Shown here one piece after another: positions 24,101-64,000 of a stretch of DNA of 64,000 bases (positions within the stretch are counted from its first letter, which is position 1; every line of letters starts with the position of its first letter). The stretch is taken from the NCBI GenBank assembly GCA_965645245.1, contig OZ287068.1, positions 186,001 to 250,000 of the forward strand, written 5' to 3'. Both the position numbers and the translations under genes were made by a program. This stretch comes from Massalongia carnosa. Taxonomy: Eukaryota. Below the pieces are notes generated by a model, which did not search any database, was not told the DNA's origin, and was given only the letters and a program-made list of their open reading frames with translations.

Positions 24101-25660
24101 CACCCAATGGCCCCCTATTTGCTTGGTGCGGCAGAACGTCTTTCCCTTCTGATGCAGATGAGAATGTTCGGTGTCCCAGTGAACCCCCTTCTTTGTTAGC
24201 TTGCTTAGGCACACCAAATTGGTGAAAAATCCTGAGGATAGCGCCACATCTAGAAGCCTGATTGGCACCGGCCCATGAGTTCCTTGTGCCGTGATATCTA
24301 CCGTTCCATATCCATCTATGCTATAAACGGTTTTTCCGGCCATGAGCTTGTCATCAGTGTTTGCTATACGCGTCAACTGAAACCGCTCCGGATCATTGCA
24401 TACATGAATGTCTGTTCCGCAATCCAGGGTCCAACAGTTGACCAACCTATGTGGCTCCGGTTCGGAAGCAACTGCAAACGTTGAAAACGATCTAGGTGGT
24501 GCGGCAGGCAAGATCGAGACTGATGATCCGGCAGGCACTATCGAAACTGCAAATGCTGCAGGATCGGATTTTTCTGAAGACGATTTCTCTTCCTTTCCGA
24601 CTTTTTCGACTTGTTTTGCGTGCTTATCTCGGACCGACTTGATGATCTTATCTAGCCGATGATTCTTAGCTAGCTTTTCTTCTATTATTTTCTCAATGCT
24701 CTTGTCCGGGGTCCACCCCTCTGGCCTCAGGTCCTTGAGCAAATAGTAGCAATCCTTGAAGCGGTGCTTCTTGCCACATATGCACTTCTTCTCGGAATTT
24801 CCTTGGTCCGAGTTAGATCCCTGAGCTGATTTTTGACTCATTGTCGAGTTCGATTTTTCTTGATCTGATTGGTCAGATCCTTGAAATGTTGCAAATGCCG
24901 AATGGGTAGCCCCCTTGCTATCTAGGGCCCTGGCGGTTCGCAAATGATTCCGGAATTCTTCCAGAAGATCCCTTATCGAGAAATCTTCCTCATTCCGATG
25001 AATTTTATACTGTAATATGGCCTCTCTACCGGCCACAAACGAACCGTCCACTGTCCTTAGCGCATTCAAGAAATCATAAATGCATCTATGTCCCTGAACG
25101 TCCGGAATTTTCAGTCTATCCGCTTCTGCATAGACTTTCTCCCATTCCAACAACCAGTGATCCAGTTGCTGACTCTTGGGGGCACGTTGTAGGTCCTTAT
25201 ATTTCTGAATAACTTCGAGTTCTCGGATCCGGTCCGTCGGTGCAAGCCTCTTCTTTAGAGCTGATAACTTCTTATATATCGAGTCCTGTCCCCTGAGATA
25301 TAACAAATTGGTCCGATCCACGGTGGTCAATATATATGCTTCCAGGTTTTTTAGGGCTTCGGTCTTCTCCCGATACGTACGCAAGTCTTCTCTATGATCC
25401 TCTCTTCGCAATATCAGATCCCGTCGCTGTCCCTCGGTTAAGTCCTCGGATGACACGGCACCTGCTTTCATGGAAGAGAAGGTAGGGGTAATGGGTCTGA
25501 TTGGCTCGTCTGGCTCAGGTTTCGCCAGGTCCACATACTGCTCGATTCCACCTCGCTTGGCCATGGACTCCACGATAAGGATCCATTCATCCCAGTCACC
25601 GGGCTCCTTGAGGACTACCACGGTTTTCTGACTAGAAGCGGGCAAGGTAGAGAAAGACAT
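21110..25660 (-). CDS. Copia A gag-pol polyprotein, open up to the Copia B insertion
   Basis: Gag, LDCG protease, WHEMLGH, integrase, YVDD RT and RNase H in Copia order (IN before RT). Confidence 0.92.
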
Positions 25661-26814
25661 CTTCTGTTCGATTGTCCAAAGAAGATGGAAGAAGTAACAA
25701 TAAAGGTCAATAAGAACTTGGGGATACTGATCGATGAATGCAGCGATTAGGAAGCCGGGCTCATAACTGTCGGACCGTTCTTATTGATCTGGAAAATGAT
25801 GTTCTCCTTGTCTATCTAAACTGGAAATTCTAGCTAGCTATATAGACCATTTCGCCACATTCTTTCATAATCTAGATATCTTCCAGCCACTTCTATTTAC
25901 TAATAAATCATTAGTGATCCGGAACCCATGCGAGGTACAATGCTTTGAAATCATTGAGTATTAGAAATCAGATATATGGCATAGAAAGAAATAGCATCTG
26001 AAAGATCGAGGCCTCGGTTATTAGTCCGAAATCACGTGCTTTTCCTTCAACAGGATCTTACTTCGGGAATTGGCTTGAACCACGGTCTATTAATATCGAC
26101 ACAAATTTAGTACGGGCTTAGCTGAATAATGCCCCCTCGCCCATAAAACCCCCCTATATAAAAGACCCTATAGCCCATAAAACCCTGTCCCAAATGACCT
26201 TCGGCCGATCAATTGACCCATAAGACCAGGGTCTTGTCTGCCAAATAATTCGGTAGTTCTTTTCCTTTTAGACAGGGAGCAAACAGGCTCGTAGCAATAG
26301 CTACACAACACATAGCATCAACACATACAGTTTGTCAGGACTCGGGTGTGGGAGCGCTAAATCCAACGGCTCTTCCCGACCGAAGCTTCGGAGATAAGCT
26401 TCTAGAGCCGGATGGAAACTTCGAGAAGAAGGGCAAACGGGGCATATAGATTTCACATTCTTCTTTGTAGATAGATTTCTCTTCTTCATGCTTAGTCTCT
26501 TAGGTAGCTGACTACTATTCGTCTTCCCTGGATAGTGGTTCTTACATTAGACTAAGCATCTTCTTTAACCCTTGCTATCCTGAACACGATATTAAACCGT
26601 TCAACCAGGAAAATTAGAAGAAGAACCCGGAACTTAGACTAGAACCAGATCATAGGGCCTTAAATGCAAGGATTTCTAGGCCACCAGAATTACCAGAATC
26701 AAAAGAAGAACTCAGACCCAGAAGAACCAGAACCCAGGATCGTAGAAACCAGGATTTCTCGGCCATCGAATAGAAGATCACAAGATAAGAACACCCCCAA
26801 GAAAGAAAGAAGAA

Positions 26815-42272: not shown

Positions 42273-43966
42273 GTTTGCATTGATCGCTTGGCAATAATCA
42301 AGTGAACACAGAATAAAGCTTCCCAGTCCAACAGCATCAATGAATAGCAGATGCTAGAAGACAACTCGCGAAAGGAGAAGGAAACTTGAGGAACGCATCT
42401 TGCATAGAAGATGACAGGTGGAAGGCATGCTCAGCCTATCGACTGTAGATCTTAACCTGTATTAGATTGACTAGATCAGCAGGCTGTTGACTGCGATTAC
42501 CCAATTAGGCTAGCTTGTATTTCAGGAGTTTTGAATAGACTCCCTTACAAATATTCGTATCATACTTTATGAATAGAACCTTCCATCCCACAATGGGACA
42601 GTCTCACCGTGCGCGTCCCGGGGAGCCTAGCGCGCCCATCTCGATGAGTCATCCGTTCGTTGCCCCACCGCGAACCTTGCCTCAGTACGGAGTAATGTTG
42701 TGGCACAGCCTTCGCCTGCACTAACCTCTTTCGGTTAGATCGGCGCTAACTTCCCCAAATTCAAATTTCTTCATCTTTTTGATCATTGACCAACAACCAC
42801 ATTGATTAAAAATCAGCCGATACCGTACATAGCTTGAAAATCATCGCCGTCATCATCACCGTCGTCAAAATCATTTCCCTTGACTCCCCTGACCCCCTGA
42901 CCCTCGTGATTCTCGGCTTACTCCGCATACCCCGCATACCCCGCATTCTAACAATCATTCGCATCTCCTGGTTGAAAAGATGCTTCCGAATCGAATTCTT
43001 TCAATGATTCTTCCAAATCGAAAGATACGAAATCATCTCGTAGCCATGTTTCTCCTTCTGGAAGATCTGGAAGGATTGAATTATCTCCATGACCAGTGCT
43101 ATCTACGATAAACGTGACATCTTCCTCATTGATATTGGCACGCGGATTCTTTCTAATTTCCTTCTTCGCTTCCTCAGCTATCCATACCTCATTCGTGGCC
43201 TTCCATAATGCCTCGGGGTCAGGAATCTTCTCATACATTTTAATTGGAATGGGACCGAGCATTTTCTGCATTTCTTTCAGCTGTTTAACTCGATCTCTTT
43301 CTGCTTTTCGAGCAGCCAATCCCTTGACATGCATTTCGTCTCTTTCTATTCGCCATAGCTTCATGAAGCTATTATTCGCTCGTTTCTCCTCAGCCTCTTG
43401 ATCCTGTTGTAGTCTGATGGCTATAGCCTGCTTTGCATCTTCCGCTGTGATTCCCAATCTTCCGGTTTCTGGTCTCAGACGTTTACGAGATATTCGTCTG
43501 TTATTTAACTGACTTCTTCTTGATTCTCGATGCATTTCCAGCTCCGTGCCATCGATAATCGCATGTCAGGGTCCTGGCCTGACCCGACATGCTCTGGTGG
43601 TCACGGGACAGCGTGACTCGCCTAAGCAGTAGCGCGCGTCGCTTGACTGGCTAGCGCACCCACGGTAGATTATGTTTAGGAGTTCAGCGATGATTATTCT
43701 TTTCTTTCCTTCCTTGTAGTTAAATTCTAGTTCATAGCTACTGAATAATATCAGGGCAAGCTGCCTGACATAATTTAACTACCTTTAATGCTTATTAGTA
43801 CTCTTCCAGTCTTCTAGAACTTTCAGCACATTTAGAAAGGGACAACGACCTGCTCCTTTAGCTTTCCAGAACGATCACTCGTGAGAATTCGAGCTGGTCC
43901 TCACTCCAGAACCTTTAGAACTTCCAGAATCGAAAGACAGAGCTCTTTCACCTCCAGAACACAGTC

Positions 43967-45571
43967 ATGAGTTCGAAAACTCCCCTGACTGCTCGAAAGG
44001 CCGGCGCTCCTCGCGAAGACGCTCAAGCAGGCCCTGCTTTTAACACTCGCGCCCGTTCCATGTCCTGTCATTCGGCTCGCTCTGATAGTATGCCAGGGAC
44101 GTTCGAAGACTCCGAGCTTACACCCGGTGAGCAGATGGGAGACGAGACAGAATGCACACTAGAAAAGACCCCGAAGGCTGGGTCAGGAAATGAGAAGGAA
44201 GGGGCTCGCGAGATTGACATCTCGGAACATCCATACTACGAACGAGAAACTCGGAAACATCCCGCACGATACAAAATTCGCAACCTAGAAGACTTCCGAA
44301 ATGCCGTCCTAGACGAGAACGAAGGTCCTCGTTGGTATGAGTTTTTGTCCAGAGCAATTCCCTATGACAAAACACTATACGAAAAAAGCTTCGGGCTTCA
44401 TGAGAAGCTTATCAAGACCAAGAAGCATTTAGAACAATATAAGCAGATTAATGACCGTTTCGCTGACGAAAAGGATGAAGACGAACGCCAAATCCTTCTT
44501 GCTCAGGAAGAGCTTTCGCATAAAGAAATTGAGTTGGAAGAAGCCCTCCAGGCCCAACAGGACTTACAGAAAGAGAAGGAGAATCTTGAGCGACGGCTAG
44601 CAGCTCCCGACTCCTCTCGTGGCCAACGGGAGGACACTGCTACAACCCAGAGCACCACTATAAATCTCCAGAACTGGCGTCCACGTGGCATTCACCCCAG
44701 CAAGCCTCTGAAAGGCGAAGACGCTGAGGAATATAGTCCTTGGCAATACTCACTCCGAAACAAGCTTAAGACCGATTCTCCGCTTTACGCCAACGAGGGC
44801 GAAAAGGTCAGTTATGCTCTATCGCAAATGGAAGCGCCTATTTTTGGGGCTATGCACTCCTGGGTCGTCGACATGGGCGACTCTCTCACCATTGACGCTC
44901 TGTTCGACGAGATCGAACATTATATGGGCATACATCTCCAGAGTCGAGATGCCAAGAAAGAACTCATCACCATCACAATGAAAAGTGGTGAAAGTGTAAG
45001 CGAGTACTATCATCGAATTTTTAAGCTTTGGCAAAAGGCCAAAACCCCCATCGACGAGAGGATAGAGAAGTTTCTTGTAACATTGAAGCCAAGCATCTCT
45101 AATTCACTGATGGGTTCAGTTTTCACCGACTTTCGTCCCTTGCTCGACGAAGCTAGGAGAATCGAAGATCGACGCAAGGATGTCGCTCACTACTTTCCTC
45201 GGCCAGAGAAGTCTGGTCCGTCAAAGAACTCTGGTCGCGAAGGCAAGTCCTCGAGTGGACAAACCTCCATTTCCGATTCTCGTCAATCGAGTGCAAAAGA
45301 GAAGAAGTCGGGTGATCATCCAAACTCCAAGTTCAGCGCCACGATAGTCAAACCCGCTGGTTGGATAGGGGTTTGGTACGATCCTGACCCCAACCCCAAA
45401 AAGTTGGAGAAGGAAGAGCGAGAGACATTGTCGCGTCAGGGACGCTGTTGGGCATGTCGGGGGTCAGGTCATCGAGGAAACGACTCGATCTGCCCTCAAT
45501 TTAAAGAAAAGAAGCTTAACACTACAAGAATTGTTGAGATAGACTCTGGCTCCGAGTCGGGAAAAGCTTAG
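43967..45571 (+). CDS. gag: Gypsy-4 Gag (534 aa, coiled-coil-like N-terminal half)
   Basis: MKSGESVSEY motif; CWACRGSGH...C knuckle. Confidence 0.9.
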   Translation: MSSKTPLTARKAGAPREDAQAGPAFNTRARSMSCHSARSDSMPGTFEDSELTPGEQMGDETECTLEKTPKAGSGNEKEGAREIDISEHPYYERETRKHPARYKIRNLEDFRNAVLDENEGPRWYEFLSRAIPYDKTLYEKSFGLHEKLIKTKKHLEQYKQINDRFADEKDEDERQILLAQEELSHKEIELEEALQAQQDLQKEKENLERRLAAPDSSRGQREDTATTQSTTINLQNWRPRGIHPSKPLKGEDAEEYSPWQYSLRNKLKTDSPLYANEGEKVSYALSQMEAPIFGAMHSWVVDMGDSLTIDALFDEIEHYMGIHLQSRDAKKELITITMKSGESVSEYYHRIFKLWQKAKTPIDERIEKFLVTLKPSISNSLMGSVFTDFRPLLDEARRIEDRRKDVAHYFPRPEKSGPSKNSGREGKSSSGQTSISDSRQSSAKEKKSGDHPNSKFSATIVKPAGWIGVWYDPDPNPKKLEKEERETLSRQGRCWACRGSGHRGNDSICPQFKEKKLNTTRIVEIDSGSESGKA

Positions 45572-48500
45572 TCCTTGATCAAAATCGCGATCAAGGACGT
45601 CTTAAGAAAGATGTCATTTGTGAAATTGGTAGCGCTGAAATGAAGACAGTAAGGGTCTCTAGTTGTGCTGTTCTCGATACTGAAAAGAAGATCGAGGGCA
45701 AGCATCTAGTATTTAAAACTAGCATAGCTGGAATTAAAACTCGTTTACTTGTTGATAATGGAAGTGAGGCTGAGCTCATTGATGAATCCTTCGCGCGTGT
45801 AAATAAACTGAACACCTCCAAATTAGAAACGGGGGTTAAACTGACCCTCGGAAACGGAGAGGTTGCCCAACTTCTCACGAGGACCGCCCTAGTCGACGTC
45901 AAAATCGGGGATCATCAAGAACAAGTCCTTTGCTATGTAGCAAAACTGGACATGTACGCGGTTATTCTAGGAGATGGATGGCTACAAACTCACAACCCCA
46001 GCATTGACTGGAAAGAGCGAATTATGAAGTTTAACTCTGCCGATTGCTTGGAAATGGGATGCCTTTCGCGTGGAATAACCTGCACCGAATTTGCTGTTGG
46101 AAGTAGGGCAAAGAATAGGATCGGAACAAAAGACGATATCGAAGTCCTTCCGGTCAATGCGAAACATTTCTTTCGGATGGTTAGGAAGAAAGATCACGAG
46201 GGATACTTATGGACTCCCCGAGAACATAAGACCTTCTGTGCCACAACCACTGGGACCGTCACCTCAAAGGATTACGACAAGTTTATGAAAGGCAAACCCG
46301 AGTACTCCCGCGAAGAATTATTGAAGAAAATTCCCTCAGAGTATCATAGCATGATAGAAGTCTTTATGAAGCATAAAGCAGACGAACTACCGGAACATCG
46401 TAAGGAGGATCACGAGATCAACCTCATGGACGGAAAAGAACCCCCTTATGTCAGGAACTATAAGCCTATGTCAGAACAGGAGTTGGAAGCTGTCAAGAAG
46501 TATATTGACGAACATATGGGAAAGGGATTCATTCGTCCAGTTCGTCGACAGCAGCAGCTCCGGTCCTTCTAGTTCGAAAACCAGGTGGTGGACTGAGATT
46601 TTGTGTGGACTATCGAGCCTTGAATGCCATCACAGTAAAGAATCGATATCCTATTCCCCTAATTAACGAGACGCTCGGAAAACTCTCGCAGGCAAAACGC
46701 TTCACGAAACTAGACGTTATTACGGCATTCAATCGTCTTCGAGTAAAAGAAGGACATGAATGGCTTACCGCTTTTAACACAAGATATGGCCAGTTCGAAT
46801 ATCTGGTCATGCCTTTCGGTTTATGCAATGCTCCAGGGACTTTTCAGAGTTATATAAATAATTCGGTTCGGGAATATTTAGACGTCTTTTGTACTGCTTA
46901 TCTGGATGACGTCTTGATCTACAGTGATAATGAGGAAGAGCATTCAGATCACGTCTTGAAGGTTCTTAAACGCTTGGGGGAACGAGGACTCCAAGTTGAC
47001 ATTGACAAATGTGAATTCTCGGTGACTAAAGTAAAGTACCTCGGACTTATAGTCACCACTGAAGGAATACAAATGGATTCCGAGAAGATTGAAGCGATTT
47101 TGAAATGGGAAACTCCGGAGTCCGTGAAGGACGTGCAAGCTTTTTTAGGCTTTGCAAACTTCTATCGACGATTCATATCAAAGTTCTCTCAGCGTACAAG
47201 GTCTCTGACGGAATTAACAAAAGGAGAACAAATAACGACCAAGTCGGGCAAGAAGAGAACCCGATATAACGTGTTCATCTGGACCGAAGACTGTAAAAAA
47301 GCTTTCGAAGATTTGAAAGAGGCCTTCACTACTGCACCAGTGTTAGCGCACTATGATTCTTCTCTAGAGACATGGATAGAAACAGACTCTTCGGATTTCG
47401 TCACTGCCGGAGTCTTATCTCAGATGCATGACGGAGTGCTCAAACCGGTAGCATATTTCTCCAAGAAGATGACACCGGCCGAATGTAATTACATGATATA
47501 TGATAAGGAACTCCTCGCTATCATAAAGAGCTTCGAGGTCTGGCGGCCCGAGGCAGCAAGTGCTGCGCCTGACCAGCCAATCAAAGTTTATACTGATCAT
47601 AAAAACCTGGAACACTTTATGACGACAAAGCAACTGAACCGCAGACAGGCCCGATGGGCTGAATTCCTTTCGGAGTTCAATTTCAAAATCATATATCGAC
47701 CGGGCAGACAAGGCGAAAAGCCGGACACACTTACTCGACGTTCTCAAGATCTTCCAAAAGGGTTTGACGACTCTCGACAACAACATCAATTCCAGACATT
47801 GCTACAGGAGCATCAACTAGACGATGACGTAAAGAAGGCTTTATCAGTGATCTTCTGTGCAAACACAAGAACAAATGACACTGACGAAGAAGCTGAGGAA
47901 CCTCAGGCCATCGAGGACGATGAAGAGGCTCAGGGTCAGATTTTAAATGAAAATCCGGTGAAAGAACTAGGCGACGATTCGGAAGAAGATCCATCAGCGA
48001 AACCTCTAGAAGAACTAATTGAAGAAGCTTATGAAAAAGATGAAGTAGTTCAAGACATAATCGCTGCCAAAACACGAGAACTTCGCAAGCTTCCATCGCA
48101 TCTTATAAAGAAAGGGATCAAATTAGCCATGGGAGATCTCAAAGTGAAAGATGAAAGACTATATGTCAAAGATAGGCTGTATGTCCCAGATCATGAACCC
48201 CTTCAATTATGCCTGTTGCAGAAACATCACGAACCTCCTCTGCAAGGACACCCGGGATATAAAAGCATGTATCAGTCACTGATGGAAAACTACTTCTAGT
48301 TCGACATGAAGGATCACTGCAAAAGATACGCAGTGAACTGCTCCGTTTGTCGAAGGTCAAAATCATACAATGTCAAGAAACAGGGCTTACTGAATCCTCT
48401 ACCCATACCGAACAGAAAATGGACAGACGTCTCTTTAGATTTTGTGGAGTTTTTGCCGGAATGTCGGCGAAGGAATAGAGTGTATCAACACATATTAGTG

Positions 48501-49631
48501 ATAGTAGACCGTCTAACAAAAAGACGATTATACGAACCGCTTACGTCACTCTCCACCGACGAATTAATGGACGCCATGTCTCGACGACTCTTCTCCTCGT
48601 ATGGCTTTCCATTGTCAACGGTAAACGATCGAGGTAGTCAGCTGACTGCTCATCTGTGGAAAAGAATTTGTGAAAGATACGGAGTAAAGATAAAGTTCTC
48701 TTCAGCGTATCATCCAGAAACGGATGGTCAAACTGAGAATGCAAATAAAGTAATGAAGAACTACCTTCGATCATACATCAATTATGCTCAGGACAACTGG
48801 GTCGACTATCTTTCAGATGCCGAGTTCGCCGTCAACAATCATGTTAACGTTTCGACAGGAATGACCCCATTTTTCGCAGATCACGGCTTTCATCCTCGTT
48901 CGGGAATAGAGCCTCCAGGAACATATGAAGAAAAGGGAAAAGCCGAGATACTTCATGCTGACAAAATAGTCGCTCGCCAGGAAGCAATGCGAGAATGGTT
49001 AAGAAATCAGCTAACATGGGCCCAGGAAGAACAAACACGACATGCTAACAAAGATCGTCAACCGCACCCAGAATACAAAGTGGGCGATTTAGTGTACGTT
49101 AATGCTAAACATTTCGCATCAGAGCGTCCAAGTCGTTCCCTCGGGTTTAAAAACGTTGGTCCCTGGAAAATTGTTAGGATAATCGATAACAAGGCATATG
49201 AGCTTGACATACCACAGCATTTAAAGAATGTGGGACTCACCCCAATATTTCATCCATGGAAGTTGCATCTCGCTCCGTCCAATCCGTTCCCAGGGCAAGT
49301 ACTGCCTCCCGGCCCACCTGTCTTGATCACCGAGAACGATAAGGAGGCAACACATGAAGAGTGGGAAATCTTAGAGATAGTGGACTGTCGAGAGACAAGG
49401 AAATTTGGGGTACAGTATAAGGCTACATATATTGGAAATTGGGACGAATGGAACGCTGACCCACCTTGGCAACCATGGACCGACTTCAGAAAGTCTATCG
49501 AAAAGGTTCTGCAATATCATAGAGAACATCCTCGAAAACCGAAGGCGCCAGAGGACCGCACAGGGATGGATCAGACGATCGATAACGTCAGACCATCTAC
49601 GGAAACCGTAGATGGACCCGATGAGGCTTAG
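45559..49631 (+). pseudogene. pol: Gypsy-4 pol, disrupted
   Basis: LVDNG, YLDD, RNase H, integrase, divergent chromodomain. Frameshift near 46538; TAG at 48297-48299. Confidence 0.92.
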
Positions 49632-50188
49632 CTTCGAATAAGGGATTATTCGTTTCTTTAGTCAAGAATTGGTTGAACGGAGCGGATTATTCACGACTCC
49701 GAGACGTCGTCCATAGAAGGGGGGTAGTGTCAGGGTCCTGGCCTGACCCGACATGCTCTGGTGGTCACGGGACAGCGTGACTCGCCTAAGCAGTAGCGCG
49801 CGTCGCTTGACTGGCTAGCGCACCCACGGTAGATTATGTTTAGGAGTTCAGCGATGATTATTCTTTTCTTTCCTTCCTTGTAGTTAAATTCTAGTTCATA
49901 GCTACTGAATAATATCAGGGCAAGCTGCCTGACATCGCATTCGAAACAACTTCATTTGTATTGTCTACAAATGAGTCCCATTCCTCAGCCCGAGCGGGAT
50001 CACTCCATTGCATGGATTTTCTGATTTTCGGTCCCCATTGACTCAAACCATACTCAATGTCAGCTACTTTTGTCGGTTGGATTTGACGAGGTAGGGGTAG
50101 AGGTAATGAGGGCTCATTATTCAAACTGTTTAATGAATCATTGGGATCATTGAGATTGAAATTTTTCAGCTGACGAATGCATGCCTTT

Positions 50189-51115: not shown

Positions 51116-52680
51116 CCTTTGGATCAATCGGCCACATTCCCGACTTTTCAAATGCATGCCGAATCGTAAAGTCTTGAATGTATGATTTCTGATTTTGGTC
51201 AAGTCCTGTATAAATTGAGACAGAGAATACTCGACAAATGACGACGCAACGACTTCCTCAATAGCTTTGCAATGCCAATGCTTATAAGGCTGAAATACGC
51301 CCACATCCAATGGTTGCATGCCATGAGTTAAATGCGGTATAAAGGGAAAGGGTCGAATGCGATTCTCATTGGCCAAAAGTGAAAATTCAGGGGTTGTATG
51401 ACTGCCATGATTATCCATCAGCAATAATTGCCATTCCGCATCAGGTCCTGCATTTGTATGTTTGATAAGATGCTTCAAATATTCAATTGCTATCTTATCA
51501 GATGTAAAACCACTGTTCGAGGGCACGACATACGTGCCCTCGGGCACACCTTCTAAAAACCATCTGGCCATGATGTCATGACCCTATACGATGATCATTG
51601 GAGGGGGGGGATAGTCGCCGGCAGCATTGATAGTCTCAATAACTGTCGCAGATCTGCGATTTTCCGGGCTGACGGCGTAGAATTGTTTGATTTCCTCAGG
51701 AACAATGATTTCCTGACCCCTCATGCATCCAACCCGAAAACCAGCTTCATCAAAGTTCAAATGTTCCGACTTTTTCGAATTTTCAACTCTTTCAACACCT
51801 CTCTATACCTTTCAAACCATTCTATCACATCTGATTCTTGGGCAGCTTCATAACGAATCATTACTAGTGGTTTTGTCTTTATTTTATGAAGTTTGTTACA
51901 TTTCCACCAGCTCCGAAACCATCTTCTTGACGGGCCTACCTCGAGGGGGTTATGGGCCTTTTTCAGACTTACAATAGCCTTGAAAACCATCTGATATGTA
52001 GGAAGAATTCCATGCATCAATAAGGACTTAATAAATCCAGTAATTGACCTTGCCTCATGCTCCCTCAGTATCTGATTTTGTCCTCCATTTTTCCTCCCTT
52101 CTGGTCGACGAATGGAAGACGTCAAAGTTTTGACGTTGATATTGTAGATTCTAGCTGCAGTCGTTTTACTTTCTTTGGGATGATTTGTCAGAAATTCCTT
52201 CGCCTTTTCCAATCTTTCCATGGGGTTGAGAGTGGAGACAAGGGAGGCGTCGTTATCCATGATACGAAAGGGGAGATTGGTTTGGGGGATTGATTCGAGA
52301 GGAAAGAATTTGAATTGATGATCAGTTGGGTCGGAGAAATAATTTTCAAGCTATGTACGGTATTGGCTGATTTTTAATCAATTTGGTTGTTGGTCAACAA
52401 TCAAAAAGGTGAAGAAATTTGAATTTGGGGGGATGCAACCGCTTTCCGGGATGCAACCGCTTTCCCCGACTAAAATGCGGTCGACATTTTTTCAAGTCGG
52501 ATCCCGGAGGTAAGCGAGCCGACGATTAGAATAAACAGCCCTTCGCCCACCTCTTTCGGAGTGCCACTGATCAATCTATTGATTACACTCCACCTACTGC
52601 TATTCCATAGCGGCTCCTATTCTATTGTCCTACCACTACTGTAGAGCCATATAGTCACACTGTTCGTACTTCGCCTCACA

Positions 52681-53866
52681 ATGATGTGGCCATTCAAGAT
52701 GCGATTGCGGAGTTCAATGTAGAGTATACAGTAACTCGATTTTGTCAAGATCTTACCAAAATACGAGATAACACATTCAAGAAATCAACTATTCAATCTG
52801 CCTTTGAAAAATCTGGAATTTGGCCTATTAATGAGAAGAAATGCACTGAACAGCTAAAGAAGTTTGTACCTTCGCAAAATGAGAATAATTCTTCTTCTTT
52901 TCCAACATTGCCACGAGTTCAACCTAAAACGGTTGATGATGTTGAAAGAGGATTACTTGAATGGCTACCCAAAATTCGCGATAATACACAATGGGGTGAT
53001 CCAGTCCGGGAACAGGAGTTAGAGGAATTCGTGAGTAATACGAAGGAAGTTGTTGCCAAATCGACGCTTACGAAATTCGAACTGTCACTTCATCATGAGC
53101 GAAGAAGCAATGAATTACTACAGAGAGCAACTTCTCGCAAGCGATTAAGACCTAATTACTCGACAGACGGAGGATTAGGACTCACGAAGGAGGATGCGCA
53201 ACGAGCAATTGTTGAAAGACAGCAAAAAGACGAGCAGATAGAAAAGAAACGAGAGCACAACAACTTCATGAGAATATGGCGAATGAAAAGAGATAGTGTA
53301 CATACACGCGGAAGGTATTATCGCTCGAAAGAATGAAAAGATCCGAATAAAACATATTAAAGACCTCGCAAAACAGGGAGTTAGCATATCCGATGAAATG
53401 TTGACTCCAATTGATGATCCTGAGGCCATTTGGAAGGCGAGCGACATTACTTGGCAGACGGAAGAGACCAAAAAAAGGACGAAGAAAGGAGTAAAAGATA
53501 CTCATATATTCAATGATGAAGAGGAAGAGACAGAGACTACCATTATCATGGATACTGTAGGTGATCAAAATCTACGATTTATAGGTGAAGGTGATTCTAT
53601 TCGTCAACCAAAAGACTTCGTTGCCTTTGAAATGGAAGAGGAAGTAGGCGACGATGTCGACCACAGTGACGAGGATGATGTTCAGGAGCAGTTGGGTTAT
53701 TATTAATATAACTACTATTATAACACTTTTCATGCTTGATCTTTGTAGAAAAAAATTCCAATCGTTATTTGATTGAATTTTTGCGTGTAAAAGTTGAAAA
53801 GACGAACTTTGCTTTCCGCCGAACTTTGCTTTCCCCCACGAGGTAAGCGAGAGACTAGCCGACGAT
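52681..53866 (+). mobile_element. 3' half of a pogo/Fot1-type transposon
   Basis: ORFs 52686-53336 and 53296-53706 resemble the C-terminus of the 42752-52526 transposase. Right end has GAACTTTGCTTTCC direct repeats and ...GACGAT plus TA. Confidence 0.8.
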
Positions 53867-55186
53867 TAGCACTTAAAGTAGAAAGTTATAGTGCTGTAAC
53901 TGGTAGGTTCAGTCACTTCATCTATGATTGACCCTCCGATATCGCACGATCATCGGGCTACAGATATCTACTTTGGATTGACAATAGCGACGGTCCACCT
54001 AGCCTTATCGGAGGCCGGCCTTACAATAGGCCGGCCCCCTGAATCCTAATGCGGTAAGGTGGACAAGGAGGTGTTTGCTATAGCAAACAATCTGGTCAAT
54101 AAGGTCCTCGGGAGGACCCCCTCGAACTTCCTTCCTTCTAGATAGCATTAATATAATCACCTTTCAAAGCCTTCAGTCTGCCACTAAGCCTCCTGTAATC
54201 AAAGGGTTATGAGCCCGGCTAGACGCTAGGGAAGTGCTATATAATCTCTTCTCTTCCTACATATCTAGTCCATTTTCCTTGTAGGCCAATTATCAAGCCT
54301 CAAAGAACCTCCTCAGCTGTCGGTGCTTAGTCTTCAACAATGGGACTAGAAACCTATCAGATAAAGCCGTTGGTAGGTGAAAAGAACTACAATGTATGGA
54401 AGGAGGAGGTGAAAGGCCTCCTCAGTTTAGACGAACTGTGGGATATAGTTAAAGGGGAAGAACTCCGACCCCTTAATGCTCCGCCTCGACCAGTGGACTC
54501 CCTTCTAAGATAGAGGATGGAGTCACCACCCCGGCCATAGTAGTGACACAAAGCACTATTGAGCGGTGGGAGGACAAACTGGAGGCCTTCAAGGACAAAC
54601 AGAAGAAATGGGACAAGCGAAGGGTAAAAGCAGCTACCAAGATATACTTGAACTGTGGAACAGGCCCGCGAGTCCATATAGAGAGCCTGGAAGACCCAAA
54701 AGAGATGGGGGATGTACTGGAAAAGCATTACAAAGCAACAAGTCTGGCCACTAGAGACCTGGCATTCCTTCAACTTCGTGCTAGCCAATCAGATTTCAAA
54801 TCCATTCAGGAGTACGCCGAACAACTAAAGAAGGCCCACTCCCAGTTGATACAACTCGGTCACAAGTTACCAGACTGGTTTCTCTCTACCTCGTTCCGAC
54901 TTGGTCTTAAACCGGACCTGGAAACTTATATCTTCAGTCTCGTAGAGGCTGCAAGAGCAAACATGAGGGAGTTAGACGTTGACGAGATGATGATGGCCTT
55001 AATAGATCATGATAACCGCCAACATAACTTAGAGGAATCCAACAAGGCACTGACGGCTAAGTTCAATAGGAAGGAAAAGAAAGAAGAAGATAAGAAGAGC
55101 AAAAAGGAGAAAAAGGAGAAAAAGACCAATTCCTCAAAATGTGAATACTGTGACGGTCCTGGCCACAACAAGACCAATTGCTATTA

Positions 55187-57133
55187 ATCGTGCCACACCA
55201 CCAGTAATCGTTTTCGCTTACTAGTGCCCAACGGCTCAAAGTCCAAAACGGTTCAAAGACCAAATTAACTATTTATTTCATCCTTCACCAAACGCTTGCC
55301 TATTCCACACCACCATGACTGATTCGTTCTGGGACTCTGAAAATCGTCTTGATGAGGCCATCAGCGCGTATAACAATGGAGATTATTCTAGTGCCAGCGC
55401 TGTTGCTCGAGAATTTCACGTCGATTCGAGGACACTTCGTCGAAGGCTTAATGGAGGGGCTTCCAAATCAACTCGTTCACCAAGCAACAAAGCACTTACG
55501 AATGCACAAGAAAGGGCTATTTGTGCTTACATTGAGCGATTGGATCATATGGAACAATCAGCTAAGCTCTCGATGGTTCGTGGAGCTGCTAATTATCTGC
55601 TCGGTCGAGCATTAGTTGGACAAACAGACCGTGATCATACCGACTCTCCACTTCCTATCGTAAGCGCCATGTGGACCAGACGATTTTTAAAACGTCATCC
55701 GGAGTACTTCAAACGTAAACAAAAACCTCTTGCTGTTGAGAGTAAACAATCGCACGATTCGGAGAGTATGATGAAGCATTTTCAGCAGTACAAGGCCCTT
55801 CGAGAGTTGAGAGGAATCGTGGACGAGGACACCTGGAACATGGATGAAACGGGCTTTCGAATTGGCTGTGGAAGAGCTCATTGGGTGATTTCGACTCATT
55901 CCCATAAGCCTCTTTTGATGACGGATCCAGACAACAGAGACTACATCACCTCGGTGGAGAGTATTAGTGGTGGAGGGAGGGATATTCCCCCCATGATCAT
56001 ACTTCCTGGCGTACAAATCAAGGAGAAATGGGCCCTGGAGAATGATTTGGATGATGACATTCTTTTCGCCGTCAGTCCAACGGGTTATTCAAATGATGAC
56101 CTCGCTATTGACTGGTTGAGACATTTTGATAAACATAGTGCAAAAGGGCAAATTGGTGCATGGAGGTTGTTGATTTTGGACGGATATGGATCTCATATGA
56201 CGTATGAATTTTTCGAGTATGCACAGAGCAAGCACATCGAATTATTCAGATTACCTGCTCATTCAACTCATCTGACCCAACCACTGGACGTTGGATGCTT
56301 TCGGCCGTTCAAACATTACCATGCTGAGGCCATTGATGAGGCTATTCGTGCCGGAGCAGGGGAGTTCAGCAAGATTGACTTTTTGTCGATTTTTCAGGAT
56401 ATGCGCTTCAAAACATTCACCAAATCGACGATTTTAGCTGCATTCAGGAACACAGGACTAGTGCCTTATAATCCAAATGTGGTCATTTCGAAAATCGAGG
56501 CGCAAATTCGTCAAAAGCCAACTACCCCTCCACCCCCACCATCGGCCCCATTATTGGCCAGAACACCTCGCACTTTCACTGAGGTCATCATCTTTGGCAC
56601 TAAACTTCAAAGAAGCATGCAGACAAATGATGCTGTCGGCGGAGATTATAAATTGCATGTCGATCGCTTTTTCAAAGGTGCTATGGCCAGCGCTCATGCT
56701 CAGCAGTTGGCCGAAAGGGACTTATTGACCTCAGCTAAAGCCTCAATTGCTAAGGCGGCGCGTAAAAAGCTTGCTAGAACTGTTGCTCAGTCAGGTAGGG
56801 TCATCACCGTTCGAGACTTACGTGCTAAAGTCACCAAACGAAATGAAGATGAGGTGGAAAAGGCACAGAAGGCCTTGGACCGAGCTAAAGCGGCCGCGTT
56901 GAAAAAACAACAGGTCATCGACAACGCCGAAAAGAAGCTCTGGAAAGGACTGTTTCGTGAGGCCAATACCTTCCTCCGAGCACGTAAAAAATGGGAGGTT
57001 GAAAGGACCAAATGGTGGAAGGCTTTTCGTAGTCAAATTGAACATACATAGTTAATTTGGTCTTTGAACCGTTTTGGTCTTTGAGCCGTTGGGCACTAGT
57101 AAGCGAAAACGATTACTGGTGGTGTGGCACGAT
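55187..57133 (+). mobile_element. intact pogo/Fot1-type transposon inserted in Copia C gag
   Basis: 86-bp TIRs (55187-55272 and 57048-57133, one mismatch seen); TA TSD; removal restores NCYYLNATNRPD. Confidence 0.96.
55315..57051 (+). CDS. pogo/Fot1 DDD transposase, 578 aa, uninterrupted
   Basis: HTH/CENP-B-like N-terminus; NMDETG, ILDGYGSH, QPLDVG. Confidence 0.95.
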   Translation: MTDSFWDSENRLDEAISAYNNGDYSSASAVAREFHVDSRTLRRRLNGGASKSTRSPSNKALTNAQERAICAYIERLDHMEQSAKLSMVRGAANYLLGRALVGQTDRDHTDSPLPIVSAMWTRRFLKRHPEYFKRKQKPLAVESKQSHDSESMMKHFQQYKALRELRGIVDEDTWNMDETGFRIGCGRAHWVISTHSHKPLLMTDPDNRDYITSVESISGGGRDIPPMIILPGVQIKEKWALENDLDDDILFAVSPTGYSNDDLAIDWLRHFDKHSAKGQIGAWRLLILDGYGSHMTYEFFEYAQSKHIELFRLPAHSTHLTQPLDVGCFRPFKHYHAEAIDEAIRAGAGEFSKIDFLSIFQDMRFKTFTKSTILAAFRNTGLVPYNPNVVISKIEAQIRQKPTTPPPPPSAPLLARTPRTFTEVIIFGTKLQRSMQTNDAVGGDYKLHVDRFFKGAMASAHAQQLAERDLLTSAKASIAKAARKKLARTVAQSGRVITVRDLRAKVTKRNEDEVEKAQKALDRAKAAALKKQQVIDNAEKKLWKGLFREANTFLRARKKWEVERTKWWKAFRSQIEHT

Positions 57134-60100
57134 TATCTGAATGCAACCAACCGGCCCGATAACTGAAAACCGGCCCCATCTAAGGAAAACTTGGTGAAGA
57201 ATAAGAAGGAGGATAGGAAGGAGGATAAGGACAAGAAGGAGTCTAATCCCTCGTCCAAATCAGCCTTCGTTCCAAGATCAATGGTAACTAAGAGCCTCTT
57301 TACTAACGTCCATAAGTCTCAAAATAAAGATCGTACCTGGTGGATAGACTCGGCTTCCGATGTCCATATTTGCTATGACAAAGACCTATTTGATGACTAT
57401 CAACCAATTAGAGGGAAGGTCATAAAAACAGCCAACTCCACTGACATGATTATTAAAGGAATAGGATCTGTTACCCTATATCTAGACGTGGATGGTGAAT
57501 CAAAGGCTGTGTGCCTAAAGGATGTCCATCACGTACCCGAGTCAGGATACAATCTGTTTTCTGTAGGTGTTATTGAGTCAAAAGGATTCGAATTTCGAGT
57601 AGGAAAAGGAAGAACTGAATGTTTTGCCCCTGACGGAGAACTCTGTCTTACTGGTACTCGTCAGTCTTCTGGATCTACACACTCGATCGACCTGGACCAA
57701 TCAAAGACCTTACATACCTCTTACAAATCCTCTGACAATGCCTCGTGGACGGTGTGGCACCGACGATTAGCCCATCTCAACATGAAGGACGTCAAGATTT
57801 TAGCTAAACTCTCCATTGGTATTGATGCAATTAAGGCTGATAAATGTGAATCAGCAGAACCTAAAATCAACGTGTGTCCATGTGCAATAGGAAAACAACA
57901 TCGAAATCCAGTTAGAATTCAACGACTAAAGGCCACCAACATCGGTGAAATCGTACATACCGACATTGCTGGCGGGGGGGACATACCTCAGAAAATTGGG
58001 GGAGCCAAGTATGCTGCCTCCTTCGTTGACGATTTTACTGACTGGACGGTGATTTACCTTCTGAAGAAAAAATCCTAATTAAAGAAGATCCTAAAGGACT
58101 ATTTAGCATGGATGAAGACACAAGGACATCCGGTCAAACTTATGCGCAGTGACAACGGAGGGGAGTATGCTGGCCATCAGACCTTACAAATTTTGAAGGA
58201 CAATGGCATCGAGTGGGATGCGACAGCACCACACAATCCGAATCAGAATGGGATAGCCGAGAGGTGCTTTCGCACCCTCTTCGAGCGAACCCGTGCGATT
58301 CTTATTGACAGTGGAATGCCTTCTAATCAATGGGGGGAGGCTATTTCCTACGTTACTTACCTGAGAAACAGGAGTCCAAGGCATGGTGATAAAACACCCT
58401 TCGAACTGATGCATGGCAGACAGCCAGACTTGTCGGGTGATCGTATCTTCGGGTGCGTAGCATACTCTTACAATGTTGACCCTCAGAAGGAGAAGCTGGA
58501 CGACAGAAGCATCAAATGCAGATTTCTTGGCCTTCAAGGCAACAACAAGTATCGCCTTTGGGACCTCACCTCCAAGAAACTCATCATTTCGGCACACGTG
58601 CTATGGGACGAGACCGCATCCCTTTCGGTTGAAGAATCGGGGGATGGTGACGATGACGACTATGGCTTCTTACAATTCTTCTACCGAAATGGTGACGACG
58701 AGGTGGACACATCAGGGGTGATAATTTATGCAAATGAAGAGGAGGAACTCGTTGATGAGGAAGCCCCTAAACGGCCTTTAGAACCGGAATTTGCAGATGA
58801 AGGAACCGGGAGAGAGGACGATGATAAATCAGAAAGTTCAGAAAATTCCGAGGACTCACAAGTAGCCGGCCTGACCTCTGGGTCATCAACTGCTCCTTTT
58901 ACAGGCCAATTTACTAGTAATTCCGAGCAGTCGATCAAATCCGCACCAGGACAGGTACCTCAGGAACCTAGACCACCACCTTCATCAATATCATCATCCC
59001 GACCATCCCGAAACACCTCTCGACCCGATTATGCTAAATTAGCTGATCCATGGTCTAAGAAGGAGGTAACAAGGGATTCGCATTGAGAGCTCTTAAGGCC
59101 TCCTTAAACGACCTCACCGTCCCCAGCACCTACAAGGAGGCCATTCAGTCTTCAGAGGCTACCGAATGGATCCGAGCATCAGAGGAGGAGGTTGAATCTC
59201 ATTCCATCAACGGGACCTGGGACCTGGAAATTCCACCACCTGGTAGGAAGATCCTCCCTGGTAGATGGGTTTATACCACCAAACTCGGTCCGGATGGGGA
59301 AATATCTCGATATAAGGCCCGATGGGTAGGTAAAGGTTTTTGCCAGATAGAAGGCATTGACTATAATCAAACCTATGCCAGCGTGGTCAAATCAATGACA
59401 TGGAAGGCCCTGCTGGCTATAGCGGCTAGATATGACCTGGAGGACGAACAGATCGACGTGGTCACCGCTTTCCTTGAGGCCCCTCTAAAAGAGGAGGTCT
59501 GGATGGAACAACCCCATGGGTTTGTCAAACCAGGGGGATATGCCTGTCGCTTGAAGAAGGCCTTGTATGGTCTCAAGCAGGCCCCCCGTGAATGGTATTC
59601 CACCCTCACTGACTATCTTATCACCATGGGCTATAGGAGAGTGGACGAGGACCATTCGGTCTATATTCATCAGCAAATGGCATCACAATAGCGATTTATG
59701 TGGATGATCTACTTCTCATCGGACCCTCTCTTTCGGACATCAGTCTCTTGAAGACTGAATTGTCTCACCGATTCCGGATCAAGGATCTCGGACCAATTAA
59801 TTTCTATTTAGGGATGCACGTCACTCGGGACCGGCCAAATAGAAGAATATATGTTCATCAATCGGCGTACATTAGGCGGGTCATCGATGCAGTCGACATG
59901 TCCGATTGCAAATCCGTCAAAACACCCATGGAGACCAATCTTCTTCTGGTCAAGAATTACTATAAAGACAAGATATACGAGGCCACAAATAGAGAGATCA
60001 AGGCATAGCAAGTGCTTATTGGATCTCTATTGTGGTTAGCATGTATGACTCGGCCGGATATTGCTTACTCGGTGAATCGCTGCAGTAGATATTCAATCAA

Positions 60101-60826
60101 TCCTACCCCCTATCAAGGCGCAATCTTAAAAAGAATCATTCGATATTTGGCTGGAACAAGGGACCTAGGCCTATGTTTTGGATCCTCCTATGAGGGTATT
60201 CACACCGATTTAATCGGTTATACTGATGCCTCTTATGGAGACTGTCTGGACACTAGTAGATCCACTTCCCCCTATGTCTTCCTCCTGAACAGCGGACCAA
60301 TCAGCTGGTCAACGAAACGCCAGGCCTCGGTGGCCACCTCCACAGCTGAGGTTGAGTATATGGGGGAGTGCCATGCTGGCAAGGAGGCTGTCTTCTTGGC
60401 GAATGCCTTGAAATCCTTGGGATATGGTGTCAATGGCCCCGTCCCTCTGAAAGCTGACAATAAGGCGGCTATAAAGCTAGCCGACAACCCCATCAATCAT
60501 CCTCGAGCCAAACACATCGATATCCAGTATCATAAGACGAGGGAGCTGATCGCTGAGGGAGCTATTCAAATTAGCTATGTGCCCACTTAAGGATATGATA
60601 GCTGATGGACTAACCAAGCCTCTACCGTGGATCTCCTTTCGAAGGTTCATCGATCAGATGAATATGACCACTGCCCCTGAGGCATCAAATCAATGAGGTT
60701 GATTCAAGGTTGGAACTTTCCTATTGTGAGGGAGCTTTGGATTGACAATAGCGACGGTTCACCTAGCCTTCTCGGAGGCCGGCCTTACAATAGGCCGGCC
60801 CCCTGAATCCTAATGCGGTAAGGTGG

Positions 60827-62168
60827 CACGCGGGTGAAAAAAAAATGGCAAGGTGAGCCGAAATTCCCCCACCAAAACTTACCTTTTCTTCCCTTTTTTC
60901 TTCCCCATCTTCTTCCCCATTCAACATTTCAATTCGTATGACCATTGAAATTCTACATACATTCTATTCAATAGCCAGTCATCGCCCCCTCAGCCCTAAT
61001 TACCTCTTCCAATCGTTTGGGCATTGATCGAAATCTTTCATTGATGAATTCCTGCGTCACCCGTTCCCATCCATCCCTAATCAGCTGCTTCAAGCTGACA
61101 TCGTCCCAATGAGGATACTTTCGAACATGCTGCTTCGCTGGCTGCCAGCAATTTTCTATAGGGGACAAATCAGGTGATGAGGCACAATTGAAATAATGCT
61201 CTAAATGATGATCTTCCTTCCATTTCTTGACGGCATTTCTTGTCTTGCCCGTGCCATGACCAGAGTCTCCATCTTCTTCAAGTACGAAGTCATCCCCACG
61301 CTCCAGCCAGGGCTTGACGACCGGGTCAAGAACGGATTCAATATACACCTGATGAGTCATTTTACCATTGCTGTTGCCCGGCACGTCATAAAAGATAATA
61401 TCCGACTTGAAATTGTAGCCAATTGCAGCCCAGCAATGTTTTCGTTTTCGATCTTTCTCAGGATGCGGGTCACGATGCTGTATGCAATCCCAATGATATC
61501 GTGTTCCGTGCTGACGAATGATTCGTAACTGTCCTTCCGGCCCATATCCAAAATAAATCTCATCACTAAATCGTACGCGATCCCATTGCTCCGGTTTGGG
61601 ATATCTGGTCAGCATCATGTGAGCAAATTCGACCCGTCTTTGCATAGGTGGGTCGGCCAGCCATCCCTTGACGCAGGCCAGAAATTTCTCATAGTTTAGA
61701 GCAGCCGACATAACATTGTGCAATGTACGACCGACAACGTCGGCCCCAATCTCCATAGCCAATTGTTCCCATGTATATCGTTTTCCTTCCAACTGTAGCC
61801 CCTCATCTTGTAGAATGTGATCTGCCTCCTGTATTTGTGCTTCCGTGACTTTTGATTTGCGACCGCGTGTCTCAACGAGCGTTGAATGATGTCTTCTTCT
61901 AGAAGATGCTCCGTTTCGAATGATCTTATAGCCCTGTCTCTCGCTTCGAATGCCAAAATGCTGAAAAATCTCTCGAGGATCGATGGAAATGCCTTTTGCA
62001 AGAAGAAATTCATAAGCTCCCTACACCTTGGCCTTTTGAGGTGTATCGTAGTAGGATGGCATTTGAAATGTTGAATGAGGAAGAAGATGGGAAGAAAAAG
62101 GGGAAGAAAAGGGGTAAGTTTTGGTGGGGGAGTTTCGGCTCACCTTGCCCTTTTTTTTTCACCCGGTG
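60827..62168 (-). mobile_element. Tc1-like transposon inserted in the Copia C 3' LTR
   Basis: About 105-bp imperfect TIRs beginning CAC(G)CGGGTGAAAA; exact termini uncertain by a few bp. Confidence 0.9.
60968..62062 (-). pseudogene. Tc1-like DDE transposase, 364 codons, open except for one TAG at codon 14
   Basis: MPSYYDTPQKAKV*GAYEF...; VRFSDE, EDGDSGHG, SPDLSPIENCW. Confidence 0.85.
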
Positions 62169-62431
62169 TTTGCTATAGCAAACAATCTGGTCAATAAGGT
62201 CCTCGGGAGGACCCCCTCGAACTTCCTTCCTTCTAGATAGCATTAATATAACCACCTTTCAAAGCCTTCAGTCTGCCACTAAGCCTCCTGTAATCAAAGA
62301 TCTAGTCGCTCGTTTTTTTTATCGCCGTAATCATGTCTTCTTTCTTGGAGTAGCAAGGCTTTTATCGGGTAGCCGGTGCTCAATGGACTTTTCCTCGTGC
62401 GTGCCATTAAACTATGCGGTCGCAATATTCC

Positions 62432-62572
62432 AAATGACCCCCAAATGACCCCCTTCAATTAATTACAGTTCTTGGGGGTCATCGTGACAGCGCCAGAAGC
62501 AAAATTACGTGTATATTACGGTAATTGACCCCCAAATAACCCCCAGGCAAGATGGGGGTTATTTGGGGGTCA
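62432..62572. repeat. cluster of TGACCCCCAAA-type motifs in both orientations, including a perfect 20-bp-arm palindrome (62526-62572)
   Basis: TGACCCCCAAATAACCCCCA - GGCAAGA - TGGGGGTTATTTGGGGGTCA. Confidence 0.85.
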
Positions 62573-64000
62573 TATCAGTAATTTGCCGCTACAATAAACT
62601 GCGGATGTACTGTCAAACTACACAACTCGTTTGAAGCTAGCTGGCAACAGTCGAATGTCCTTGTTAATTCCAATTGTCGAAAACTTGCTAAAACATAGCA
62701 GAGACAGAGATAAGGAATCCATTCTCTCTAGCTAATGATAGGTATTTCATCCTTGTGCCTTTGTTTGAGAACATGCATTTTCACAGGACGATCAAAGCCA
62801 GCATCTACATCTTTTCATAATTCGCCAACGAGTTTGAGACACGTTGACGATAAAACATATCCAAACCAATCCGTTCCAGATATGTATTTTTTAGTGATTA
62901 TATATTCCCACCTCTTCGGAACTGCTCTCTTTGCGACTTTTCCGTGATATGTATAGCACGATTTTTCTTTGTCGTATTACTACAGCTAAGCGACAACAAG
63001 TCTTCTCAATGTTCTTCTTCGGTGTGATTATTTACTTTCTCGTGTCGGCCTCGTATGTTTATCCTATTCTCCGGTCTCGTAGCTGATGGAGATCTTGCAG
63101 CTTCACGTTATTGCCAGCCACAGTGAAGAAGTGGCAGCATTCGGTAATCAACTAGACTACTTAGGGGTTGCATACCTAATGTCTGAGGATAGCAGATAGG
63201 TCTACTTACCGCTGCCTGTTCCTCTATCACTGTCTTCCTTATAGTCGTCATCCGAAATTTCGACCATATTAGGCAGTCATGTATTCTAGCCTTGGCCTTT
63301 CAGTGCTTATTATTATCACTCATAACTTAGTGATCTACGGCTGGAAGGTCCAAAACCGTAGAATGAGTCTTAACTGGATGGCACTGATAGCAGATTTCAA
63401 CTTCATAGGCGCCGCCGTTTATGCTGTTAGGGTAGGTCTCCACAGCTCGTCCTAAATAGTATCTTGACGAGTCTCAGGTTTCGGAAAGTTGGTATCCCCG
63501 AAGACATGACATCTATGGCAGTAGCCATCAGATACTCCATCTCTTGATAAGTTTCGCTGGCTTAACACATACGATTGGTCTTCTGATTAGGAAATGGTGA
63601 AACGTTGAGTCGCAATTAAAGTCTTTACGGGATATCTCTTGCTGCTATTGTTACAGTTACGGGATTTGTGATGCGAGATGAGGGATCAGTAAGTCTCTGA
63701 GCTTCTGCTTGCTTCGGTCAGTCTTTATTTCCTTTCGCTGTGAAGATCTGCTGATCTAGATCACAAAGAATCTGCCTACTTAGCAGCATTTAAATGAGGT
63801 ACGCACCTTCTCGAAAAGAAACACTGATGTGACCGTGATAAGGGGGAGCGTATAATAGCCCTTATAGATTTATCCAAAATCGCCTCTAGTAGCAAGCACG
63901 AGGTTTTGTATCATGGATGAAGACTGAGACTGCAAATGAGGGAACATCTTCGACCACATAGCCAATAGAGAATCACCGATCCGCTCCAGAGCAAATCGGC

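Follow-up and report, generated by a model that had tools for sequence, protein, structure and literature searches.

In a 64,000-nucleotide stretch of Massalongia carnosa DNA (GCA_965645245.1, contig OZ287068.1, positions 186,001 to 250,000, hereafter the window), a Ty1/copia-type retrotransposon at 53971–62299 is bounded by CT...AG instead of TG...CA, and these ends are a real and heritable trait of more than one Copia family. Long terminal repeats (LTRs) almost universally end in TG...CA, and few features of retroelement integration are as conserved as the terminal CA. We consider it probable that the ends of the complementary DNA (cDNA) of this element are set directly by the primers and joined untrimmed, that its own integrase joins an AG-3′OH, and that the ends originated by in-register substitution. 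These Copia families have swapped all four terminal bases, kept their ends complementary and multiplied, and near relatives hold canonical and intermediate states; what an integrase reads at a DNA end becomes testable through the comparison of such relatives.

CT...AG ends at distinct insertion sites

The element lies between two copies of ATCTA, its target-site duplication (TSD; 53966–53970 and 62300–62304). The left copy runs directly into CTTTGGATT, the 234-bp 5′ LTR (53971–54204) closes with AATCAAAG and is followed by GGTTATGAGCCCGGC, the polypurine tract (PPT) GAGGGAG (60728–60734) meets the CTTTGG of the 3′ LTR at 60735, and AATCAAAG up to 62299 adjoins the right ATCTA. These four landmarks lie exactly where the first-pass annotation had placed them, and the inverted repeat CTTTG...CAAAG with a TG/CA 3 nt inside each end is present in the sequence as it described. 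Of 227 bases that can be compared between the LTRs, 3 differ, and the coding region is broken by stops and frame changes.

The proposal to tabulate termini and duplications of further copies was followed in the own genome (52 Mb, 25 contigs), where 40 of 65 candidate LTR matches were scored. All 40 LTRs of this family (family A) start with CT, 36 of them with CTTT, and four LTR copies of one insertion begin with CTTGG, one T short as read from their duplication ATATC. The opposite end is AAAG in 39/40, the exception being AAAT at an internal junction between LTR and primer-binding site (PBS). Duplicated sites were collapsed (six copies with TGTTT, four with ATATC, two with GGCCG) and partner LTRs then fetched, leaving 21 distinct sites with both flanks. 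Family A accounts for 18 of these (12 paired, 6 solo), a second family, B, for the other three. A perfect 5-bp duplication, expected by chance at about 1 in 1000 per site, abuts the C...G boundary at 19 of these 21 sites. At the buried TG...CA, where duplications in other copies would have spoken against the first-pass annotation by its own criterion, a duplication of 3–6 bp was found at none of the 21. To allow for the missing T, the boundary of one locus (L095) was shifted manually by a single base. A 3′ LTR at C1:1739518, whose partner 5′ LTR was not found in the surrounding stretches examined, and a truncated 5′ LTR at C20 were omitted as they have a single flank only, and so was a truncated family B element with an inverted fragment at C16. 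No target-site consensus was found among the 19 duplications.

Family B of the same genome has an LTR of 341 bp, CTTTGGATT...TTCCAAAG, with two AG-type PBS sites and the duplications ATGAT, CTATC and AAAAT. Its LTRs cannot be aligned with those of family A except at the ends, and the proteins of the two families are 57–61% identical in reverse transcriptase (RT) and integrase.

The pre-insertion sequence could be read from empty sites. The left flank of the window element is repeated in the genome, with 25 matches, one occupied and 24 empty. At the empty sites a single ATCTA (ATCCA in one) continues straight into the right-flank sequence, and none carries the CTT or AAG that the first-pass annotation had named as evidence against it. 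These sites are paralogous copies and not necessarily the orthologous locus; they nevertheless give the pre-insertion sequence. Lichen metagenome contigs cover most of the window; together with the 52-Mb genome and the nested transposons of fungal type, this suggests an ascomycete host. Contigs from three of four other studies compared show the same empty joint, in which 8 flank letters separate 53970 from 62316; those of run X6 cover only the Tc1 portion of the element. No RNA run was listed among those containing the window, which has no bearing on its expression. An artefact or one-off event, i.e., a misread boundary, an assembly error or a single aberrant insertion spread by segmental duplication, could draw on the fact that some copies do duplicate one site (six share TGTTT flanks, four share ATATC flanks). 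Its probability is negligible: 19 different duplications remain after collapsing, contigs from three other studies span the element and display the empty site, and the paralogous empty sites refute it as well.

One insertion is present six times with identical flanks, mostly near contig ends, and another four times (C1, C7, C12, C13, C16, C17). They may reflect segmental or subtelomeric duplication, or carriage within a larger mobile unit.

Register of the ends and priming

In every element with both landmarks, the LTR has the PPT immediately before it and the PBS immediately after it. The reading is GGGAG|TGTTG...CAA(C/T/G)A|GGTTATG in canonical and sister elements, GGGAG|CGTTG...CAAAG|GGTTATG in an element from another assembly (L145), and GGGAG|CTTTG...CAAAG|GGTTATG in families A and B. 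TTG at positions 3–5 and CAA at −5 to −3 are fixed across these elements. Since both are unmoved in the same register, the "buried" TG/CA represents positions 4–5 of an ordinary TGTTG...CAACA repeat with its outer two bases substituted. Judged from this register, the two terminal bases are substituted in place, with no untrimmed extension.

This bears on the two mechanisms offered by the first-pass annotation, namely joining of an AG-3′ end or joining of cDNA with 3-nt extensions outside a canonical TG/CA. The former gains from the family-wide ends and duplications; the latter loses its footing. If the inner TG...CA were the true attachment site and CTT and AAG untrimmed extensions, TG and CA would sit 3 nt inside each end, as they do. 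The canonical TGTTG...CAACA relatives, however, have the same inner TG/CA with PPT and PBS in the same register and no 3-nt offset, the CG...AG family is a single base away from TGTTG, and two extensions would need a separate process making exact reverse complements. We therefore regard extensions as very improbable.

The PBS of the window element (54205–54219) directly follows the LTR and pairs over 15 nt with tRNA-Met(CAT) of this genome, as far as tRNA base 39. This match suggests priming from the putative initiator tRNA-Met's anticodon stem-loop, its initiator status being read from the tRNA sequence. Anticodon stem-loop priming is known for Ty5 and copia (PMC10886601; this and the papers cited below were available in excerpts). 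With the last G of the LTR, the pairing grows from 15 nt to 15 plus 1, so the right terminal G might be templated by the tRNA, with a primer one base longer, a ribonucleotide retained and copied, and the left end drifting to match. A one-base extension is expected in one of four cases by chance, though, and CAA and the PBS, expected to lie further apart after addition of a base, are spaced as in A-ending sisters. As the left end is also unexplained, this origin of the G appears improbable.

End types among related Copia elements

A census of the PBS word in the genome gave 391 matches, among them one or more tRNA genes and some that are probably due to chance. The two bases before it are CA in 236, TA in 103, CT in at least 18 and AG in at least 17, and PBS sites preceded by G have AG in 21 of 22. 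Departures from the canonical Copia ends are common here. TG...TA families with perfect 5-bp duplications occur at L071, L072, L073, L074 and L088. A short family resembling terminal-repeat retrotransposons in miniature (L215, L219, L220 and kin) has TG...CT ends, LTRs of ~150 bp, a second LTR 1.15–1.3 kb past the PBS and the duplications ATAAA (L215) and GAATT (L219). At L103 (C3:1264000-1272000; duplication CTAAA), the 5′ LTR ends with CA and the 3′ LTR with TA.

A protein search returned a group of 17 relatives with 42–59% identity, and their alignment, used as query, led to 80 metagenome loci. An LTR pair with duplication was found at 15 of them (10 TG...GA, 3 TG...TA, 1 TG...CA, 1 CG...AG), an LTR pair without duplication at six more; they come from a few related assemblies and are not independent. 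The ten Tos17-like TG...GA elements with 5-bp duplications, all from other assemblies, are L129, L138, L147, L149, L150, L157, L158, L165, L166 and L182. The CG...AG element L145 reads GCTTA|CGTTGG...TTCCAAAG|GCTTA, and a second insertion of its family (L142) is known from the 3′ LTR alone. In the closest outside integrase relative (L130/L131, 58%), TTTTATCT (...ATCT) precedes a degenerate PBS, a hint of one more type of end; no LTR pair was found at these loci. Viral contigs yielded no relative by protein search and four pattern matches, of which three are tRNA-like and none has RT or integrase.

This variety speaks for the main rival explanation, in which the integrase is indifferent to the last two bases, reading subterminal CAA or nothing, and CT...AG is neutral founder drift. 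Right ends within the clade are CA, TA, GA or AG, the PBS-adjacent ends of the census vary likewise, and there is no diagnostic integrase residue. Yet the two ends are inherited via separate RNA positions, and 3′-G stands at both in three families. In families A and B, CTTTGGATT and CAAAG are retained in LTRs that are otherwise unalignable, and just one LTR in 40 lacks AG, at an internal junction, which looks like selection on G. Hence, we rate indifference as rather unlikely. Since ends mutate independently, their concordance in three families speaks for selection by a shared enzyme. It is conceivable, with slightly less than even confidence, that the lineage has re-specified its end recognition, so that it now reads subterminal CAA, selects G as the terminal base and no longer has either base of the retroviral and Ty1 CA.

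Proposed mechanism, phylogeny and integrase

In the mechanism we favor, ribonuclease H (RNase H) would strip the half-tRNA and PPT primers to leave blunt cDNA, and the blunt ...CAAAG-3′ ends on both strands would be joined directly by the element's integrase with a 5-bp stagger. AG-3′OH would be joined as Ty1 joins CA-3′OH, with the end preference shifted or loosened. The Ty1 cDNA is blunt, is joined without 3′ processing and needs CA (PMC8487063, PMC2939329). CAACA would have become CAAAG by in-register substitution of the terminal two bases, presumably in a clade that kept subterminal CAA and already varied at the penultimate base (CA, TA, GA). The joined base would have changed from A to G once at each end, and CG...AG could represent such a state.

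Families A and B, the CG...AG family and the TG...xA sisters form one clade in the integrase and RT trees (100/99 and 100/100), apart from the other families of the genome. The branching order within this clade is unsettled; in the RT tree the CG...AG pair joins three to four proteins for which no ends are known (95/97), and families A and B group alone with 87/70 in one tree, the others leaving this open (approximately unbiased (AU) test, p 0.379). T...A is the outgroup state, so that C...G is probably derived. The trees were built under LG+G4 without mixture, and near-duplicate rows (13 in one, 7 in the other) and short-match rows were left out.

Aligning integrase residues, as proposed by the first-pass annotation, revealed one contrast and no residue explaining the CT...AG ends. 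In both CT...AG families, the third residue past the catalytic E is F, whereas 93 of 103 readable homologues, and Ty1 integrase as well, have N there (AERLNRTL in Ty1 vs. AERCFRTL in this clade). We take this position to correspond to N155 of HIV-1. F is not required for TA ends, as N-bearing families in the genome have TA ends too. A further candidate, N six residues before E, is common to the C...G families and is weak, as it also occurs in L130 and P0014. On the aligned sequences, no integrase residue convincingly tracks the end change. When a paralogous copy was searched against PDB, Ty1 integrase was the best match (E 1.5e-19), and the search returned no DNA-bound Copia integrase template.

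Several observations weigh against the mechanism proposed above. Two of the 21 sites, the paired LTRs at C11 and C14, have unlike flanks without duplication, and the 5′ LTR at C11 begins with T. Ty1 integrase requires CA under physiological metal (PMC8487063); a specificity change is consequently required here, yet no residue accounts for it. The change from N to F was rejected as the cause of the G end since F marks the whole clade, including TG...CA, TG...TA and TG...GA sisters. The 12 of 283 alignment columns that split C...G from T...A rows rest on three lineages versus one tight sister group. C...G monophyly was neither recovered nor rejected (AU p 0.165). Finally, AG-3′OH joining is deduced from inserted ends and their register.

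If end recognition has indeed been re-specified, the TG...CA, TG...TA, TG...GA and CG...AG relatives (40–60% protein identity) constitute a natural stepwise series for mapping end specificity. C...G families may then also form a hidden, under-annotated part of fungal genomes. LTR finders limited to TG...CA or T-starting motifs would drop such elements or trim them 3 bases inside, losing the duplication.

Organization of the window element and its surroundings

All features of the window element lie on the + strand, with one exception among its nested transposons. It shows the domain order gag, protease, integrase, RT, RNase H and the further traits of the Ty1/copia superfamily (Pseudoviridae), i.e., RVT_2-type RT, Copia gag, two LTRs, PBS, PPT and a 5-bp TSD, which is single at the 24 empty paralogous sites. 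The TG...CA termini typical of the superfamily, to which published exceptions exist, are absent (0/40 LTR copies). Copia gag has an open stretch at 54477–55184 (PF14223, E 6.8e-08), its upstream portion lying in other frames. The gag-protease border is occupied by a Pogo/Fot1-type DNA transposon (DDE_1; 55187–57133; PF03184, PF03221) with terminal inverted repeats, TA on either side and an open frame of 608 aa. Protease, HHCC zinc finger and the first half of the integrase follow at 57167–58078 (PF22936, PF13976), with an in-frame stop at the end, and the remainder of the integrase, with the D and E of DDE, the motif NGIAERCFRTLF and an SH3-like domain, lies at 58079–59086 (PF00665, PF25597). 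The Copia-type RT spans two frames (59059–60008; PF07727, E 6.8e-38). RNase H (60009–60660, with an approximate end and a frame change near it) was assigned by motifs and alignment to other Copia copies; the domain search gave no Pfam match in this region. The 3′ LTR is split into a left part starting with CTTTG (60735–60826, 98% to the 5′ LTR) and a right part ending with CAAAG (62165–62299, 99%) by a Tc1/mariner-type transposon (DDE_3) on the − strand (60827–62164; PF13358). This insertion is without the usual TA duplication, 7 LTR bases are gone, and its right inverted repeat looks clipped.

The element lies within repeated DNA-transposon-like sequence (52611–53970 and 62305–62575), and a separate small inverted-repeat unit is found at 62434–62573. 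Other retroelements of the window are located at 20796 (−), 14684 (+), 9526–13986 (−), 21002–25780 (−) and 43564–49935, with signs such as a PBS after ...TTCATA, two long open frames (1486 and 1592 aa) and a pair of identical 208-bp direct repeats.

Comparison with known systems

Ty5 of Saccharomyces and copia of Drosophila share with the window element the Copia domain order, a tRNA-Met(CAT) PBS of the anticodon-arm type adjoining the LTR and the 5-bp TSD; this is a likeness of traits, our trees comprising no named reference sequences. Both end with TG...CA, unlike the CT...AG found here.

Plant Copia elements without TGCA ends (Tos17 TG...GA, TARE1 TA...CA, AtRE1 TA...TA, the lotus set, Rosaceae TGTT and AACA) have likewise amplified with substituted terminal bases and short LTRs, and the non-canonical ends of TARE1 are in print (PMC3701649). 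In the available parts of the lotus and LTR_retriever surveys (PMC9804982, 10.1101/137141), the ends invariably begin with T and close with A or T. The window family, in contrast to this motif set, has C first in 40/40, and none of the plant elements in the excerpts has C first, G last or all four terminal bases changed. The statement of the first-pass annotation that non-canonical ends all begin with T was nonetheless too broad, as Rosaceae AACA Copia begin with AA (PMC5659011), errantiviruses with AGT (PMC5408687) and Troyka with CG (PMC12440569).

Among fungal elements, GalEa resembles the window element as an ascomycete Copia with an LTR of ~235 bp and a 5-bp TSD. It differs by TGT...CA ends, the only ends given in the parts seen of that fungal Copia survey, and by a conserved hairpin site (CTGATCAGT/CTAATTAGT) replacing the PBS, whereas the window element has a tRNA-type PBS (PMC5445492). 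FunCo1, the one FunCo clade compared, differs by a tRNA-Lys-type PBS, ATTAAGAGTCT, absent in the window element. The portion available of PMC7912079 held nothing further on end specificity. No Copia with CT...AG or CG...AG ends was found in the literature, a search that covered few subscription papers and did not extend to Repbase. Copia elements with C...G ends therefore seem to be new, although they may have been described before, and 3′-G joining has a precedent outside Copia.

This precedent is Troyka, which joins a 3′-G at both ends (CG...CG), backed by empty sites. Troyka is an animal lineage with Gypsy-like order (RT, RNase H, integrase), a 3-bp TSD and the penultimate C retained (PMC12440569), whereas the window family belongs to Copia, has integrase before RT and a 5-bp TSD, and has lost both C and A. 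The Drosophila errantiviruses resemble it as a whole lineage with complementary ends other than TG/CA (AGT...AnT), yet they belong to the Gypsy group and the joined base is T (PMC5408687). Ty1, whose integrase is the best solved-structure match, joins blunt unprocessed cDNA with a 5-bp TSD (PMC8487063, PMC2939329); the window family shares the TSD length and probably the mode of joining. In Ty1, however, CA-3′ is needed, and AA is used only in millimolar Mn2+ (PMC8487063). The integrase of the window family would accordingly join a DNA end that the enzyme of the model yeast would be expected to reject.

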